DNA of 62,375 nucleotides, counting the filler. It is 5 parts of 5 records of this genome, joined end to end, with 100 filler letters (N's around TTAATTAATTAA, not from the genome) between each part and the next. Parts side by side here need not be neighbours in the genome. Positions count along the whole stretch, not along the records: positions 1 to 25,873 come from SRR2962707_1137; 4 more parts are not named here. One strand, 5' to 3'. Within the stretch, counting starts at the first letter, position 1, and the number at the start of each line of letters is the position of its first letter. A program made the translations under genes and the position numbers. The notes beneath the pieces were generated by a model, which did no database searches, was not told the DNA's origin, and worked only from the letters and a program-made list of their open reading frames with translations. This document shows positions 4,847 to 48,445 of this stretch, piece after piece.

Positions 4847-6067
4847 TTAGCCAAGAATATTATGTTCTGGTCCGTAAGGGAATTTGGTGATGTTTTCGAC
4901 ATCGCCATTTTCACCAATGACCAGAATATCGTGTTCACGGTAACCGCCGGCTCCCGCAGTTCCTTCAGGTATCCAAACCATTGGCTCCATGGACACCACC
5001 ATGCCCGGCTCTAAAACTGTATCGATGTCTTCGCGCAGTTCTAGGCCCGCCTCGCGGCCATAATAATGCGACAGCACGCCGAAGGAATGGCCATAGCCAA
5101 ACGAGCGGTATTCCAGCAGTTTTTCCGCTTCAAAGAACCTGTTGAGTTCTTCGCAAATGCCGGAACATGTTGCGCCCGTTTTAATCAGGGAAATACCAAG
5201 CTCATGGGCGGCGACATTGGCCTCCCAAATTTTGCGCGATGCGGCATCTGGTTCACCTAAGAAAAGCGTGCGTTCAAGCGCGGTGTAATAGCCCGAAATC
5301 ATCGGGAAGGTGTTGAGGCTTAGAATATCGCCTTGCTGCAATTGGCGCGCAGTCACCGGATTATGTGCACCATCAGTGTTGAGACCTGACTGGAACCAAA
5401 CCCATGTATCGCGGTATTCCGCATCAGGGAAACTTTTTGCGATTTCCAGTTCCATCGCACCGCGGCCTGCCATCGCAATATCAATCTCGCGTGCGCCCTG
5501 TTTAATCGCCGCATGGATTGCAAAGCCGCCCACATCGGCAACGCGCGCACCTTGTTTAATCAGCGCAATTTCTTCCTGCGATTTGACCATACGTTCGCGC
5601 ATGGCGGCAGGCGCTACATCCACCAAGTCCGAAACACCGAGCATATCGCGCAGTTTTTCATGCGCTGCGAGTGTCAGATGATCATCTTCAACGCCAAGTC
5701 GTTTTGCATCGCCAATGAGATGCTTGACCGCACGCCAGTAATTATCGCGTTTCCAGTCCGTATAAATCACATTGTCTTCGAGCGAGCGACGCCAAGGCTG
5801 GCTGGCATCAATATTTGCCGACACGGTTGTGCATTCATCTTGCGTGACGATGCAGCCGTAAGGGCGGCCAAATGAACAATAAAGAAAGCCCGAATAATAG
5901 GCGATATTGTGCATTGAGGTAAAAAGAGCCGCATCAATATCCCGCGCAGCCATGATCGTGCGCAGACCCTTGAGACGGCGTTCATATTCTAAGTTTGAGA
6001 AAGGGAGTTTAGCTTTTCCGCCATCATAGCGGCTAAAGAATTCTGGGCGTTGTGTTTGTATCGACAT
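4847..6067 (-). CDS. Creatinase (creatine amidinohydrolase, M24 fold)
   Basis: HNIAYYSGFLYCSFGRPYG, DTWVWFQSGLNTDGAHNPVT, YYTALERT, HYYGREAGLELRED, GGYREHDI; ATG at 6067 follows GGAG. Confidence 0.92.
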   Translation of the reverse strand: MSIQTQRPEFFSRYDGGKAKLPFSNLEYERRLKGLRTIMAARDIDAALFTSMHNIAYYSGFLYCSFGRPYGCIVTQDECTTVSANIDASQPWRRSLEDNVIYTDWKRDNYWRAVKHLIGDAKRLGVEDDHLTLAAHEKLRDMLGVSDLVDVAPAAMRERMVKSQEEIALIKQGARVADVGGFAIHAAIKQGAREIDIAMAGRGAMELEIAKSFPDAEYRDTWVWFQSGLNTDGAHNPVTARQLQQGDILSLNTFPMISGYYTALERTLFLGEPDAASRKIWEANVAAHELGISLIKTGATCSGICEELNRFFEAEKLLEYRSFGYGHSFGVLSHYYGREAGLELREDIDTVLEPGMVVSMEPMVWIPEGTAGAGGYREHDILVIGENGDVENITKFPYGPEHNILG

Positions 6068-6144
6068 ACTCAAATCTCCGAAGCGCTTGCCGGATTTTGA
6101 GCTGCCGGTGCGCTGTTAAAAACAAAGCATCCGGGCGTACAGGA

Positions 6145-6186
6145 CTATTCTTGGGAGTGGTTCAAACGGGCGACGCCATCGTCCAT
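6145..6186 (-). CDS. Putative leader peptide/uORF MDDGVARLNHSQE upstream of creatinase
   Basis: ATG...TAG, 13 sense codons, lying between the predicted promoter and the structured leader; translation is unproven. Confidence 0.45.
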   Translation of the reverse strand: MDDGVARLNHSQE

Positions 6187-6195
6187 TTGAACGCG

Positions 6196-6224
6196 AAACT
6201 ATTGAAGGAATGTGGCCCCGTCAA
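6196..6224 (-). promoter_or_regulatory. Putative sigma70 promoter of the creatinase leader
   Basis: Minus strand TTGACG-N17-TAGTTT. Confidence 0.6.
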
Positions 6225-6250
6225 TCGGCAAATTTTCGGGGCCAAATCGC

Positions 6251-6955
6251 TTACTCGGTTGCTGGCACTTTAAGGCCTTTAATCGATGCAGGGCGCTCTA
6301 GGCAGCGCTCGAGCCAAGCTGAAACATTCGGTAAATCTGCAAAGCCGAGTTCTTTTTCAGCTTTGTAGAAGATTTTAGCGCCGTTGAGCCATGGGAAAAT
6401 TGCGATATCAGCAATGGTATATTCATCGCCCATAATCCATTGGCGTCCTTCCAAGCGTTGCTCCAACACATTGAGCAAGCGTTTAGCTTCGTTTTGATAG
6501 CGCTCGACGGGGCGTTTATCTTCAATTTCCTTGCCCGCAAAGGCGAAGAAATAACCAAATTGGCCAAACATCGGGCCAATGCCGCCCATTTGGAACATCA
6601 ACCATTGGATTGTTTCATATTTACGCGCTGGATCCGCTGGCAGCAATTTGCCGGTTTTCTCAGCCAAGTAAATCAGGATTGCGCCTGATTCCCACAGACC
6701 CATCGCTTCGCCATTGGGACCATTTGGATCGATAATCGCTGGGATTTTGTTGTTTGGATTGAGCGAGAGGAACGGCTCTTTTGTCACTTCGCTAAACGGC
6801 ACATAATGGGCATCATATGGCAGGCCCATCTCTTCCATCGCAATCGTTACCTTAACGCCATTAGGCGTTGGTATTGAATAGAGCTGAATAATGTCGGGAT
6901 GGACTGGTTTCCACGTTTGGCTGATAGGGAAATCTGCGAGGGTTTTCTTGCTCAT
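6251..6955 (-). CDS. Glutathione S-transferase, YfcG/YghU-like
   Basis: TPNG motif, LNPNNKIPAI, ESGAILIYLAEK, QMGGIGPMFGQ, YTIADIA. Confidence 0.93.
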   Translation of the reverse strand: MSKKTLADFPISQTWKPVHPDIIQLYSIPTPNGVKVTIAMEEMGLPYDAHYVPFSEVTKEPFLSLNPNNKIPAIIDPNGPNGEAMGLWESGAILIYLAEKTGKLLPADPARKYETIQWLMFQMGGIGPMFGQFGYFFAFAGKEIEDKRPVERYQNEAKRLLNVLEQRLEGRQWIMGDEYTIADIAIFPWLNGAKIFYKAEKELGFADLPNVSAWLERCLERPASIKGLKVPATE

Positions 6956-7174
6956 AAAACTCTTCCTGTTTGCTGCTGTTGCTGCAATAGGTAGGACAAA
7001 TTTCGTTCAATGCAATGGCGTCACAGCAAATTCACTGTTCACCAATGATGAACGAACTGTTGAAAAACAATTAGAAGTAATTGCTGCAGAAACTGATATG
7101 TTGCGCTTACAACCGGCCGGGCTTTGGGGTTAATTGCGCTTGGTTGGGCATCTTATAAACAAATGGAAAAAAAT

Positions 7175-7555
7175 ATGAACAATCTTCTTCTTCTCGTCGC
7201 CCGCATTTTGATGGCGTTTATCTTTATCATGTCTGGCATTGGCAAATTCGGCGCTATCGAAGGCACAGCCGGATATATCTCATCTGTTGGCCTTCCTGCA
7301 GGTGTAGCTCTTGCATGGCTTTCAGCAATTTTCGAAACAGTTGCAGGTATCGCTCTTTTGGTTGGCTTCCGCACAAAAGAAGCTGCTTGGCTTATGGCAG
7401 CGTTCTGTGTGGTTAGTGGTCTTCTTTTCCACTACGAACCAGCAGATCAAATGCAGATGATCAGCTTCATGAAAAACCTTGCAATGGCAGGCGGCTTCCT
7501 AGCGCTTAGCGTTGCTGGTCCTGGCGCATGGTCAGTTGACCGCCGCGGCAAATAA
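7175..7555 (+). CDS. DoxX family membrane protein
   Basis: LVARILMAFIFIMSGIGK...FMKNLAMAGGFL...GPGAWSVD. Confidence 0.9.
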   Translation: MNNLLLLVARILMAFIFIMSGIGKFGAIEGTAGYISSVGLPAGVALAWLSAIFETVAGIALLVGFRTKEAAWLMAAFCVVSGLLFHYEPADQMQMISFMKNLAMAGGFLALSVAGPGAWSVDRRGK

Positions 7556-7574
7556 GCCAAACGCATAGATAGTT

Positions 7575-7608
7575 AAACGCCGTCTGATTTTTCAGGCGGC
7601 GTTTTTTT
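7575..7608. terminator. Terminator between convergent DoxX and hisG
   Basis: AAACGCCGTCTGA-tttt-TCAGGCGGCGTTTTTTT. Confidence 0.85.
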
Positions 7609-7618
7609 GTGCGTTAAT

Positions 7619-8302
7619 TTAAGCTAGTTTTTGAGCCAGCTCGCCTATCACAGCGCTTTTAGGGCGGGCGTTTGAAGCAAACAGACAGGCTTCAGATTTT
7701 AAGATCACGCCATCATCTAAAACGCGTAGACCATTGGCGCGCAGCGTTGAGCCGGTCTCTGTAATATCAACAATCAAATCTGCCTGACCGCCCGCTGGTG
7801 CGCCTTCTGTTGCGCCCAAGCTTTCAATAATGCGGTAAAGCTGAATGCCATGCTGCTGGCTGAAAAACTGCTGCGTGAGCTGCCAATATTTTGTGGCAAT
7901 GCGCAAACGGCGACCATGCAGCGCGCGGAAGCCTGCGGCAACTTCGGCCAGATCTGCCATTGTGTGCACATCAAACCACGCATCGGGCACGGCGACAATC
8001 ACATCGGCTTTGCCGAAGTTAAGCCGCGCAACAAGGTCCATCTTAACAAAACTATCGGTGATGTTTTCGCGCACCAAATCTTCACCGGTAATGCCTGCGT
8101 CAACATTGCCAGCGGCAACTTCACGGGCAATTTCAGAGGCTGACAGATAGGCAATTTCAATGTCGCTGCGGCCCTTAACGGTGGCGCGGTATGATCGCGG
8201 ATCGGCAGGCGGTACGATCTCAATGCCGCCGCGCATTAATAGCTCAATGGCTTTTTCTTTCAGACGGCCTTTGGATGGCAATGCAAGAACGGTCACACTC
8301 AT
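7619..8302 (-). CDS. hisG: ATP phosphoribosyltransferase, short form
   Basis: [40 protein letters not shown]. Confidence 0.96.
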
Positions 8303-44770: not shown

Positions 44771-47700
44771 TCAATGCTTCGGCGACCCATGGTATTGCAC
44801 GGGCCTACTTGGAGGCTCCCGAAGGACATAGAACAGGAGGTACGCTGATACGCCGTCAAGATCTTCTGCTGCCATTTCGCTGACTCTTGCATCATTGAAG
44901 CGGTACCTGGCGAGGAGGAGGGGGGGGGGGGCACAATTTTCAAACTTGGGTGAGCGCACGCTCTCATCAGGCCCATTATCGAACACAGTGCCAGCTGATA
45001 GTTCCAATCATTCGCTCTCCACTGCAACACATACCATCGCCCGTCCTCTTTCTTGAAGCAGTCGGCTGTATAGTGCCCACCACCGCAATCGCCCATGTGG
45101 TTCGATACAGCCACCAAGTCATACATGGGTCGCGCAGAAGGTGGTAGCGTCGTCGCAAAATCTTCGTTCGTGGCACCAGTTTCGCTGGTACAAGCTGGGT
45201 GCTGGGCGAGAAATGCCTGCCGTGGCACCTGTGTGGGGCTGGACGCCCGCTGCTGTCTGCTCCTGTCATCAGCGGGCACCTCCTGCGAGGCAGACGTCCA
45301 GCAATAGTCGTAGAGATCCAGACCAGACAGCGGGAAGTCGACGCGGGTCTGCAACTTCGTGCGACGATACGCGCGGTACCTTTGGCAATCAGAAATCCCA
45401 AAAACGCATTTCATCCAGAATGGCATAAATACAAAACTCGAGACCTCTCAATCACTGCTGACAGACGGGGGCGGGAACGGGGACGGTTGGGGAAGGCCAT
45501 CACCAAAGTGCCACAGCAAAATAACGCACGAAAAACGTTTCAAGTGCAGCACGAGCACTTTCGGTACCCGGAAAATGCACATGCGCTTCAGCGATGTTTG
45601 ATGCTGCTTGCACTTGGAACAGTAGTAAGCGTCATCGCCGGAAAGCTCTTCAGACTCTGTCAGCTGCGAAAGGCATTCGTACAAACTGCATTTCCCTTTG
45701 ACTTTTCTGCGACCACCCCCTTTCGGCGACGAACGACGCCGGCTGCTCGTGCCCGCGGCTCCACCAGGGCTCATTCCGTCGCCACTTCCCCTCGCTTGGT
45801 GGCGTTTTGGGATTGACACAGACAAGTCCCAGAAAGGGTCATATGCGATGGACACAGACTTGCAGGTTTGGCAAACGACTTCCGAGCGAAGCTGTCCGCA
45901 AAAAAGGTCTTTAATGCAAGAAATATTCCGGCAGCAGTAGTTGTCCCACCAACGGTTTGAGGCTTCGAGATCAGACTGCTCGGGATCATCCTTCAGCTCC
46001 ACGTATCTGTGCAGCCCAAAAACACAAGCACTCTGGATCTAAGAATCAACGTGTGATTGCCACAGGAGATTTGATGGGGGCATGCGCGTCACAGCCTCAG
46101 GAAAGCACGTCAAAGACGAGACGGCTCAGCGCAGCAGGCGCAGCAACGCCTCGCACACAAGTGCAAAACAACCGGAACTCGTGAGTGAGCCGGCATGCAC
46201 ACCAGCAACGCCGACACCGCCCAGCAGGCCACACAAAATACCCCCAAACGTACGCAGGCTTTGTGACGACCTTGTTAAGATCGTCGTGAAGACCATCGAG
46301 CAGGAATCGAAGAAATTCCTGCGCGTCCTGCTGTTTGAATCCAATGAATCGCTTTGCAAGCTTGCCCACGGCCTTTTTCACTGCGGCGGGCCGAGTGGAC
46401 GTAAAAGCTTGAGCGTTGCGGGTGACAGTCAAGAGTCGCTTGTACGCAAGTGCAAGCTGGCCCTTGGTAAAGCTGTTCGGGTTGAGGTCAATCTCATCTT
46501 CGAACCCCAAAACATGCTCAATCAACGAGTCGACGTTGGAGACACATTGAAGACAGCTGTTCATGAAGCACGTGTTCCCCAGGTTCTGAAGGCCAACAAG
46601 CCCTTGCGGCCGAGCCGTCGTCCCGCGTTGGATACCACTGGGCCCAGGTGTGCCACGCAACGATGGGTTACTTAGCGAACCGCCGTCACTGCCCCCCACC
46701 TCTTCTGCATCCGTCCCAGCCGATGACTGCACGTTTGACGTGGACGAAGGCAGCGGGGTATGGTGACGAAGCATCGCAAGTCGCTGGCGACTTTCCTTCC
46801 GAGGGCCAAGTGCAGATACAGGTCCTCGACCAGTGCCTTCGCCGTCGGACGTGCCGCCGTCCTGGCGCACATGGGCGGCATCGCGGGCAGCCTTTTTCGA
46901 GCGGCCCCGTCTAGTGTTTTGGTGTGCAGCGCCATGGTAGTCGCTGTTGGTTCCCAAGGCGTGACGCCGAAGTTCTGGAACCAGCACGCCACTGCTGCTG
47001 CGCGCGAAATTCAGGCTGGGGGCTCGGCGAGGCAAGCTGGTGAGGGATATCCCAGCACCTTCGCCGCGGCCAACAACAACGCCAGAGTTCGATTGCACGC
47101 GGACACCGGCGCTATTGTCAGTCAACTCACCGTCAGTGAGCTGGCCACCTCCATCAGAAAAGTCCCCCGTACTGCCCGGCACATGCGCGAGCCGTCGCTG
47201 GCTGTGGCCTCGGCTGAGGCTCTTCAGACTGCCTCTATCCAAAGACGACGCTGCAGTTCCGAGGTGGCGGTGCGCGACGTCCGCGCCATGGCTGGCGTTG
47301 GATGTGAATGACTGATGAGAAGTTGTGCTGCCGTCGCTTTCATGGCCCCCGTCCAAATCATGTGTGCTGTGCAAGTGGCGAGAATGGCTGTGATGGTGGT
47401 GATCGTGAATGTTTCTAGGTAGCACGGATTGGAGTTTCTTTGAGCTTGCGCTGGCGTTGGCGCCACTGCCGGCTGCGTAGAGGGAATTGGCACGAATCGC
47501 AGCAGCCGTGCCGTTGGTGCAGCTAGAGGACGAGAAGTATTCGAGGGCCCTATTCGCCGTCGCTATCTTTGCACTCGCGGCAGATTCATGAGCCACCGGG
47601 ACGCCTGCCACCCCGAACGTGGAACTGGCAGCCGAAGCCGCGGCTAGCCCCATCTTGCGCGAACGAAGGCGGCCCGGGCTGGCGTCTGCCCGCACCGATC

Positions 47701-48445
47701 GGGAGTCCCGGAGGGGAAGCAGTTGCGCCTTTGAGGTTTCTGCAAGAGGTTCAAGTGAATCCTCTTTCGCAAAGCTCCCGTCTCGACGGTGTTTGCGCGA
47801 GGAAGACAAAAACGGGGAAGTCGTGCCATGAATCCCACTAATGGCCGCAACAGGCAATGCGTCGGCACCGCCATCGCGGTGCTCACGGGAAGCGGCGGCG
47901 GCGGCGGCGGTTGGGAACGAGCTCCGTGGCAAGCTATCATTGAGCCCACCGCCCACGGTGGAGGAACTGTTGGAGTCAATTGGTCGCTGCGCAGCACGGT
48001 GGCTGTGGCGGGTGTTGTGCTTACGACCTGCGGCCACGGCACCGACCAGCCTTTTCACGAGCGTTGATTCTGATGACCGAGCATTGCTCCCTAACGAGAC
48101 AGTCGTGCCACCACTACCACCACCGTGGTGTTGTTGCTGCTGGTGGTGGCGGCGGTCGTGCAAAAATTGCGAGTGAACGCGACCACCTGCACCGTGTTGT
48201 CGAGACTCCAGTTCTCGTGGAGCTGCCGAAGGGTATCGAAAATTTGCTGTTGTGAGGTTGGAATGGGCGCTGGCGTCCGTTGTGGTGGGCACGGACGAGA
48301 CGATGCTGGAGGCAGCGGAGCTCACGTGACTGCTGTTGACTTCGTGTGGCGTTGAGGCCGCCCCACCAGACTCTCCAAACCCCCGGCGCCGGGCGAGCAT
48401 CCCTTGAAGTCCAACCCCCAGCCGGGAACTGCGGTGACGAGGCAC
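44771..48445 (-). CDS. Ubiquitin-specific protease (C19, USP2/8/21-like) with long low-complexity N-terminus; exons 46254..~48445, 45530..46006, 45035..45379, 44771..44906
   Basis: [32 protein letters not shown]...GHYTA, FND, AYLLFY; three GT-AG introns; 5' start uncertain. Confidence 0.93.

Follow-up and report, generated by a model that had tools for sequence, protein, structure and literature searches.

Comparative analysis of the DNA ahead of a creatinase gene indicates that the leader of this gene is a real, strongly conserved cis-regulatory RNA of a kind that appears undescribed. The leader lies on the minus strand of the stretch of DNA analysed here, which is 62,375 nucleotides long and is hereafter called the window. 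We consider it likely that this RNA works as an ON riboswitch at the level of translation, with creatine or guanidinoacetate as its ligand, and belongs to an undescribed class that would resemble guanidine-II riboswitches in layout without being a member of them. This reading draws on the conservation of two hairpins, the covariation of their stems, their position behind a promoter, the genes that follow them and a computed coupling between the second hairpin and the ribosome-binding site (RBS). Creatine is the most likely ligand, because creatinase dominates the instances of the motif, and guanidinoacetate the second most likely, because it links the amidinotransferase found behind other instances. 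We know of no validated riboswitch for creatine or for any other substituted guanidine.

The original prediction for this region had described a cis-regulatory creatinase leader in which a short upstream open reading frame (uORF) encodes a peptide sensing creatine or a related guanidino compound. Its promoter and its alternative folds, which hide or free the Shine-Dalgarno sequence (SD), are retained here, and so is the predicted ligand type as the most likely one; the leader peptide as the sensor is abandoned. The sequence strings on which it was built were all read back from the window sequence where it had placed them on the minus strand. The conserved hairpins, P1 and P2, were absent from its feature list.

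The creatinase locus and its promoter

The gene downstream of the leader encodes a creatine amidinohydrolase. A phmmer comparison of its product with creatine amidinohydrolase 1CHM gave a full-length match (E 4e-159), and Pfam identified Creatinase_N and Peptidase_M24 domains. The closest relative of this creatinase is that of Ahrensia marina (locus L001), with 83% protein identity. The features of the region are listed in Table 1.

The predicted promoter, TTGACG-N17-TAGTTT, is backed by comparison with homologous leaders. Of 204 leaders, 110 carry a TTG whose position relative to the P1 box is -44 to -47, where other positions have about 4 each; the window has its TTGACG at -44. A TTG accompanied by an A2/T6 hexamer was present in 76 of the 204, and in 11 of 203 when the searched interval was shifted 60 nt upstream. 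A simple sigma-70 scan does not list this promoter, because its score of 8 out of 12 falls under the scan threshold of 9. Since the TTG stands 44-47 nt before the P1 box in these 110 leaders, the motif would be the 5' end of the transcript, with transcription starting near 6189, about 10 nt ahead of that box. A terminator scan of the leader returned zero terminator-like sites. The stability of the leader on its own is ordinary (z -1.26; 15 of 200 shuffles fold equally well). Elsewhere in the window, the minus strand at 46100-48445 carries a 782-aa open reading frame whose residues 617-725 match the Pfam family of ubiquitin carboxyl-terminal hydrolases (UCH; E 5e-24), which is unusual in a bacterial contig.

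Table 1. Coordinates of the features of the creatinase leader and gene in the window.
Feature	Position	Strand	Basis
-35 hexamer TTGACG	6219..6224	-	window sequence and homologous leaders
-10 hexamer TAGTTT	6196..6201	-	window sequence; 17 nt from TTGACG
Hairpin P1 (core 6184-6168; invariant loop AUGGCGU 6179-6173)	6160..6192	-	fold and covariation
Incidental 13-codon ORF MDDGVARLNHSQE*	6145..6186	-	not conserved in homologous leaders
Variable linker (6152-6146 may extend P2 via 6124-6118)	6146..6159	-	RBS-open fold
Hairpin P2 (stem GUCC/GGAU; loop UGUACGCCC 6141-6133)	6129..6145	-	stem covariation
Segment 1 (P2 3' strand; pairs within P2 or with segment 2)	6127..6134	-	fold
Segment 2 (anti-P2 in OFF, anti-anti-SD in ON)	6105..6113	-	fold
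Segment 3 (3a, 6093-6083, pairs with segment 2; 3b, 6101-6091, anti-SD)	6083..6101	-	fold
Segment 4 (with Shine-Dalgarno GGAG 6079-6076)	6069..6080	-	window sequence, fold
ATG of creatinase	6067	-	read from window sequence
Creatinase (creatine amidinohydrolase), the regulated gene	4847..6067	-	protein search and Pfam

Two conserved hairpins with covarying stems

To compare leaders we took the best 80 of 594 creatinase loci, picked by protein alone. Exact copies of two boxes, GATGGCGT and TGNACGCC, were found at 77 of these 80 loci and in the window, where they begin at 6180 and 6141. The other three loci (L025, L032 and L074) lack the boxes, also according to the covariance model. Upstream of the creatinase in L032 there is a P2-like box unaccompanied by a P1 box, which may be a variant of the motif or a copy in decay; its covariance model match is not significant.

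The boxes are the loops of two hairpins whose stems vary in sequence yet stay paired. The conserved part of the P2 loop, UGNACGCC, is found at 6141-6134 and is followed by a final loop base that is G or C. Among 78 leaders not filtered for stems, P1 pairing is kept by 77 leaders at -2/10, by 77 at -3/11 and by 71 at -4/12, and the P2 pairs -1/9 to -4/12 are formed in 78, 78, 78 and 75. The stem pairs of these leaders occur as G-C, C-G, A-U and U-A versions, with six pair types at P1 pair -3/11 (paired in 77/78) and three at P2 pair -3/11 (78/78). An alignment of 88 sequences, partly stem-filtered and taken from 138 candidate instances, showed 95.5% of the stem cells paired versus 32.7-44.5% with slid partners, and double changes in eight of ten stem pairs. 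Kinship was allowed for by counting changes on a FastTree phylogeny of 81 creatinases. On this tree six of the seven variable stem pairs showed joint change in 0.73-1.0 of changes and the outermost pair in 0.59, against a background of 293 other column pairs with a mean of 0.32, a 95th percentile of 0.60 and a maximum of 0.75. The top of P1 is compensated in single variants: pair 0/8 has gone from G-C to A-U in L356, and pair 1/7 from A-U to G-C in L258.

The two loops are complementary to each other, ACGCC of the P2 loop (6138-6134) to GGCGU of the P1 loop (6177-6173). The five pairs are present and invariant in all 88 aligned sequences, and the kissing helix stays a prediction because pairs that never vary give no covariation support. 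We regard a kissing pseudoknot between P1 and P2 as probable from this complementarity. One G-C kissing pair is broken in the variant L257, and in L258 the P1 closing pair (A-U/G-C) is favoured over the fifth kissing pair. An alternative register of P1 with an ANTAR-like hexaloop was rejected on inspection: in 17 of 78 leaders position -3 is a C, set against an invariant C.

In total, sixteen loop positions are invariant while the stems change freely. The leader thus combines a conserved 5' structure, covarying stems and invariant unpaired bases, as expected of a riboswitch. The same boxes might be read as DNA operators that lie directly behind the promoter and are bound by a transcription factor, and the P1 box is indeed an inverted repeat about 10 nt past the inferred start. 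We consider this very improbable, since the flanks of the boxes change in sequence yet keep base-pairing, G-U pairs included, the distance between the boxes ranges from 31 to 79 nt among 206 leaders, and P2 is coupled to the fold of the RBS.

The upstream open reading frame is not conserved

The original prediction has a ribosome stall at the stop of the uORF and thereby cover segment 1, so that segment 2 is free to pair elsewhere. In agreement with that proposal, the window contains the uORF, its stop is 10 nt ahead of segment 1, and the computed cost of opening the RBS falls from 11.1 to 8.5 kcal/mol once 6160-6127 is blocked. Comparison of the leaders speaks against it. The alignment of orthologous leaders that it had called for revealed conserved, covarying hairpins P1 and P2 and an unconserved uORF frame. 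The uORF start position holds an ATG in one of 206 leaders, the window itself, and the frame ends ahead of the P2 box in 27 of 206. Seven of 78 leaders have any in-frame ATG in the 30 nt upstream. The uORF is missing in Ahrensia marina, where CGA replaces the ATG and the frame closes after four codons (DGVA). The spacing between the boxes is indifferent to the reading frame (24, 39 and 15 of 78 for the three remainders modulo 3), and the uORF ATG is part of the 5' strand of P1. Segment 1 contains the 3' strand of the conserved P2 hairpin, and this hairpin would take the place of the stalled ribosome in freeing segment 2.

An invariant ATG also lies inside the P1 box, in another frame, and might be taken in favour of a leader peptide. 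The open reading frames that start there run from 3 to at least 100 codons and fall in all three frames (63/78/65), and this ATG sits in a hairpin without room for an SD. DNA contigs near-identical to the window carry few substitutions. In one of them (a single contig of depth 4.2, so that its differences may be errors) both uORF substitutions are non-synonymous, and one substitution turns the A-C mismatch of the window's P1 into A-U. A conserved start, frame, stop and peptide are all absent, which excludes the leader from the leader-peptide attenuators, and we judge attenuation by a peptide to be highly unlikely.

Coupling of P2 to the ribosome-binding site

Since segment 1 is the 3' strand of P2, the four complementary segments of the original prediction would form the expression platform of the riboswitch. 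The nearest relative, Ahrensia marina, retains all four in altered form; there, segment 2 is present as GTGCACCGG and the same arrangement of segment 3 gives a perfect 7-bp helix between segments 2 and 3. Both of the predicted states were recovered by computed folding of the window leader from 6189. The minimum free energy (MFE) fold is the state in which segments 1:2 and 3:4 pair and the SD is hidden (-37.6 kcal/mol). When the RBS alone was forced open, the 2:3 helix formed together with an extended P2 of 11 pairs that appeared unprompted (-27.2 kcal/mol). This ON fold is the MFE fold of a transcript ending at 6078, with segment 4 incomplete, and in the folds of the window ON equals or beats OFF only while segment 4 is incomplete.

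At equilibrium the OFF state of the window is about 10 kcal/mol more stable than the ON state, and forcing P2 recovers about 1.5 of the 11 kcal/mol that it costs to open the RBS. Because OFF is so much more stable, the kissing interaction, the ligand and co-transcriptional folding would have to supply the remainder; the folds exclude both pseudoknot and ligand, and the naked kissing duplex is estimated at -7.7. In Ahrensia marina, forcing P2 lowers the cost of opening the RBS from 8.9 to 3.3.

The coupling was also found across the homologous leaders. Opening the RBS in 211 creatinase leaders, which are related sequences, led to a gain of P2 in 60 and a loss in 9; among the nine amidinotransferase leaders, P2 was gained in four and lost in one. 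When P2 was forced in 197 leaders, opening the RBS became cheaper by 0.96 kcal/mol; with the platform shuffled, the saving was 0.21 kcal/mol. Ten bases from the P2 3' strand pair with the SD region of their own locus at -7.2, compared with -6.2 for other loci and -4.6 for shuffled sequence. As the sequences compared are related, P values for these comparisons are overstated. The equilibrium accessibility of the SD stayed flat in the window and in 153 of 206 leaders, and went up in 47 and down in 6.

The many flat leaders would agree with a structured leader that works independently of any ligand, such as a 5' stabiliser, a fixed translational damper or the target of a small RNA, and that has spread with the genes. 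We find such a leader improbable: its sixteen loop positions would be held invariant on freely changing stems, the motif precedes three unrelated gene classes linked to creatine (see below), and the coupling of P2 to the RBS exceeds the shuffled controls.

Genes preceded by the motif

We collected 255 distinct instances that form the stems. They precede 216 creatinase genes, 17 genes for an EamA transporter, 9 for an amidinotransferase, 1 for a Rieske oxygenase and 12 others; this last group consists of contig ends, a creatinase with a frameshift, one other gene and matches that are probably due to chance. Creatinase and amidinotransferase are non-homologous genes of one pathway, an association which is typical of riboswitch regulons.

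The amidinotransferase matches human L-arginine:glycine amidinotransferase (E 5e-84), an enzyme that makes guanidinoacetate (accessible part of PMC12623156). It was found in 78 of 400 Rhodobacteraceae genomes. The animal-like amidinotransferases L247-L316 are 76-97% identical to one another over full-length matches. Among the best 30 amidinotransferase loci, the motif precedes the gene at 8, and a creatinase is nearby at 4. Locus L247 has divergent-facing copies of the motif, one before the creatinase and one before the amidinotransferase.

The EamA transporter gene (Pfam EamA) occurs in 17 of 280 genomes. The motif scores above 33 bits at 10 of 17 homologues and one more has a degenerate copy; a link of this transporter to the creatine pathway would follow from its leader. 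The P2 loop ends in C in 17/17 EamA leaders (loci L138, L159 and L335-L371), in G in 9/9 amidinotransferase leaders and in G in 184/216 creatinase leaders, and a G at a variable loop position occurs in EamA leaders only (3/17). The difference in the last loop base may tune specificity or merely reflect ancestry. Before the EamA gene of L159 (779-874), P1 is tandemly duplicated as a 26-nt repeat, giving two P1 and one P2. In L392 (2764-4203), an Acinetobacter creatinase cluster ends in a DMT-family transporter, annotated YddG, which echoes the EamA link.

The Rieske oxygenase was rejected as a gene generally linked to the motif, as 1 of 20 homologues carries it. In L374 the end of a creatinase, a GlxA-family regulator and the Rieske oxygenase are found together. 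The DNA ahead of the Rieske gene in L374, L379 and L382 resembles what we take to be the end of a urocanate hydratase gene.

Distribution of the motif

Our sampling covers Alphaproteobacteria and one Acinetobacter plasmid, and the leaders counted are related sequences. A search with a sequence-only pattern gave at least 119 matches in metagenomes and 11 in 401 genomes of the order of Ahrensia marina. Both stems can form in 82 of the 130 pattern matches listed. A creatinase follows 71 of these 82, against 1 of the 48 without stems; of the remaining 11 stem-forming matches listed, two are at EamA genes, one is at a frameshifted creatinase and three are at contig ends, while five are probably due to chance. 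The pattern was present in 222 of 400 Rhodobacteraceae genomes, and its reversed control in 0.

With the covariance model, 98 of 150 Rhodobacteraceae genomes gave a score above 34 bits, and 117 had a match at E<=0.01. In 150 genomes drawn from the class, five had matches above 40 bits, all five ahead of a creatinase. Matches under about 30 bits are partial or due to chance and were left uncounted. A looser pattern, whose gap could not span the long linkers, failed to recover known copies, and four of its six matches are not the motif. In L343 there is a match with weaker stems before a gene similar to serine hydrolases.

Rfam models returned nothing at the leader in a search of positions 5000-8000 of the window (E<=5) and 0 matches at seven motif loci (E<=1). 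The search of the window gave a weak RcsR1 match elsewhere, at 7476-7606 on the plus strand (22.5 bits; gathering threshold 60), which is probably a terminator hairpin after a DoxX-like gene.

We found no description of the motif in the literature covered, a survey bounded by the supplementary motif tables of PMC8632094, PMC11109978 and PMC5737381 and by most subscription papers. The accessible portions of the main texts of these three papers hold no creatinase motif; PMC8632094 included Ruegeria sp. TM1040 in its analysis, according to the same portions, and a low-ranked supplementary listing of the motif there is possible.

Proposed mechanism and significance

In the mechanism that we propose, transcription would start about 10 nt before the P1 box and yield an aptamer made of P1 and P2 joined by the variable linker, whose loops would pair through GGCG/CGCC and possibly a fifth pair. 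Without ligand, segment 1 would pair with segment 2, and the 3:4 pairing would hide the SD (OFF). A small molecule of creatine metabolism would bind at or near the loop-loop interface and stabilise the kissing P1 and P2, holding segment 1 within P2. Segment 2 could then pair with segment 3 and leave the RBS open (ON).

On balance, we also lean slightly towards a wider proposal: the new class would sense creatine or guanidinoacetate directly through an asymmetric, enlarged form of the guanidine-II kissing-hairpin layout, would replace the regulator CahR in marine Alphaproteobacteria, and would control a regulon of creatinase, the EamA transporter and the amidinotransferase through RNA. We speculate that the amidinotransferase runs backwards in this setting and salvages guanidinoacetate into arginine and glycine.

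New classes of riboswitch whose ligand is evident are rarely found, and this motif is small and present in about two thirds of the sampled Rhodobacteraceae. If the proposal is true, it explains how creatine of animal origin is sensed by a dominant marine group and gives functions to an orphan EamA transporter and a bacterial amidinotransferase. It would also allow a structural comparison with guanidine-II and offer a compact creatine sensor.

Comparison with known systems

TnaC, SpeFL and ErmCL are ligand-sensing leader peptides, and in ErmCL alternative hairpins free the RBS. The creatinase leader resembles ErmCL in its alternative hairpins, which are predicted to free the RBS. TnaC, SpeFL and ErmCL keep their start, stop and peptide, whereas the creatinase leaders keep none of these.

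The descriptions of the systems below come from the accessible portions of the cited sources, and the comparisons are limited to these. The targets of the ANTAR proteins EutV, NasR and AmiR are two hairpins with conserved loops in the 5' leader (PMC3369931). Their two hexaloops are alike and carry A1 and G4, the linker has about 5-12 nt, and extending it to 14 nt abolished induction (PMC3369931). The creatinase motif also places two hairpins in a 5' leader and conserves their loops, and it was rejected as a member because its loops of 7 and 9 nt are unlike each other, its boxes are 31-79 nt apart and the leader has no terminator. The resemblance raises the possibility that P1 and P2 bind an RNA-binding regulator, ANTAR-like or other, which would sense creatine, stabilise P2 and open the RBS through the same platform. 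Such a regulator would suit a short pair of hairpins with conserved loops and closing pairs, which is the layout of ANTAR targets (PMC3369931), and the comparative data would look alike for a protein and for a small-molecule ligand. We nevertheless consider it unlikely, since the loops, which here are complementary, and the linker do not match those of ANTAR targets, and since the neighbouring genes vary, with no shared regulator recognised by rough ORF clustering.

A known regulator of creatinase, CahR, is an AraC/GATR DNA-binding protein responsible for the creatine-dependent induction of creA in Pseudomonas putida (10.1101/2021.11.02.466972). No CahR-like gene was found within 3 kb of the 80 best alphaproteobacterial creatinases (0/80), which also argues against a regulator of this kind at these loci; as a positive control, the query found itself and two others at other loci. 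A probable CahR homologue lies ahead of the Acinetobacter creatinase, where the motif is absent. CahR and the predicted riboswitch would do the same physiological job, the creatine-dependent induction of creatinase. They differ in that CahR is a protein acting on transcription through DNA, with no homologue beside the 80 alphaproteobacterial creatinases.

Guanidine-IV riboswitches (GGAM-1/mepA) are ON switches with two hairpins and a proposed loop-loop pseudoknot (PMC7736828), and have an intrinsic terminator before sugE or mepA (PMC7736828; 10.1101/2020.10.21.349134). The creatinase leader resembles them in its two hairpins and predicted loop-loop pseudoknot. It was rejected as a member, having no terminator-like site and no match in Rfam.

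Guanidine-II riboswitches (mini-ykkC) consist of two hairpins with identical ACGR tetraloops that kiss through 2 bp and are joined by a linker of 7-40 nt (PMC5558903). They act as translational ON switches by freeing the SD and control guanidine carboxylases and SugE (PMC5558903). Membership in this class was rejected, as the loops of the creatinase leader, AUGGCGU and UGNACGCC(G/C), are not ACGR tetraloops, the Rfam model found no match in the searches given above, and 243 of the 255 instances are at creatinase, EamA, amidinotransferase or Rieske genes, and not at genes for SugE or guanidine carboxylase. The two also differ in that the loops of the creatinase leader have 7 and 9 nt, are mutually unlike and share 4-5 complementary bases, and in that its gene set is creatinase, amidinotransferase and EamA. 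They are alike in having two short hairpins, a variable linker and complementary loops, predicted here to kiss through C-G pairs, and in translational ON control by release of the SD, which is likewise predicted for the creatinase leader. In addition, ACGC occurs within the P2 loop, and the regulated substrates carry a guanidino group.
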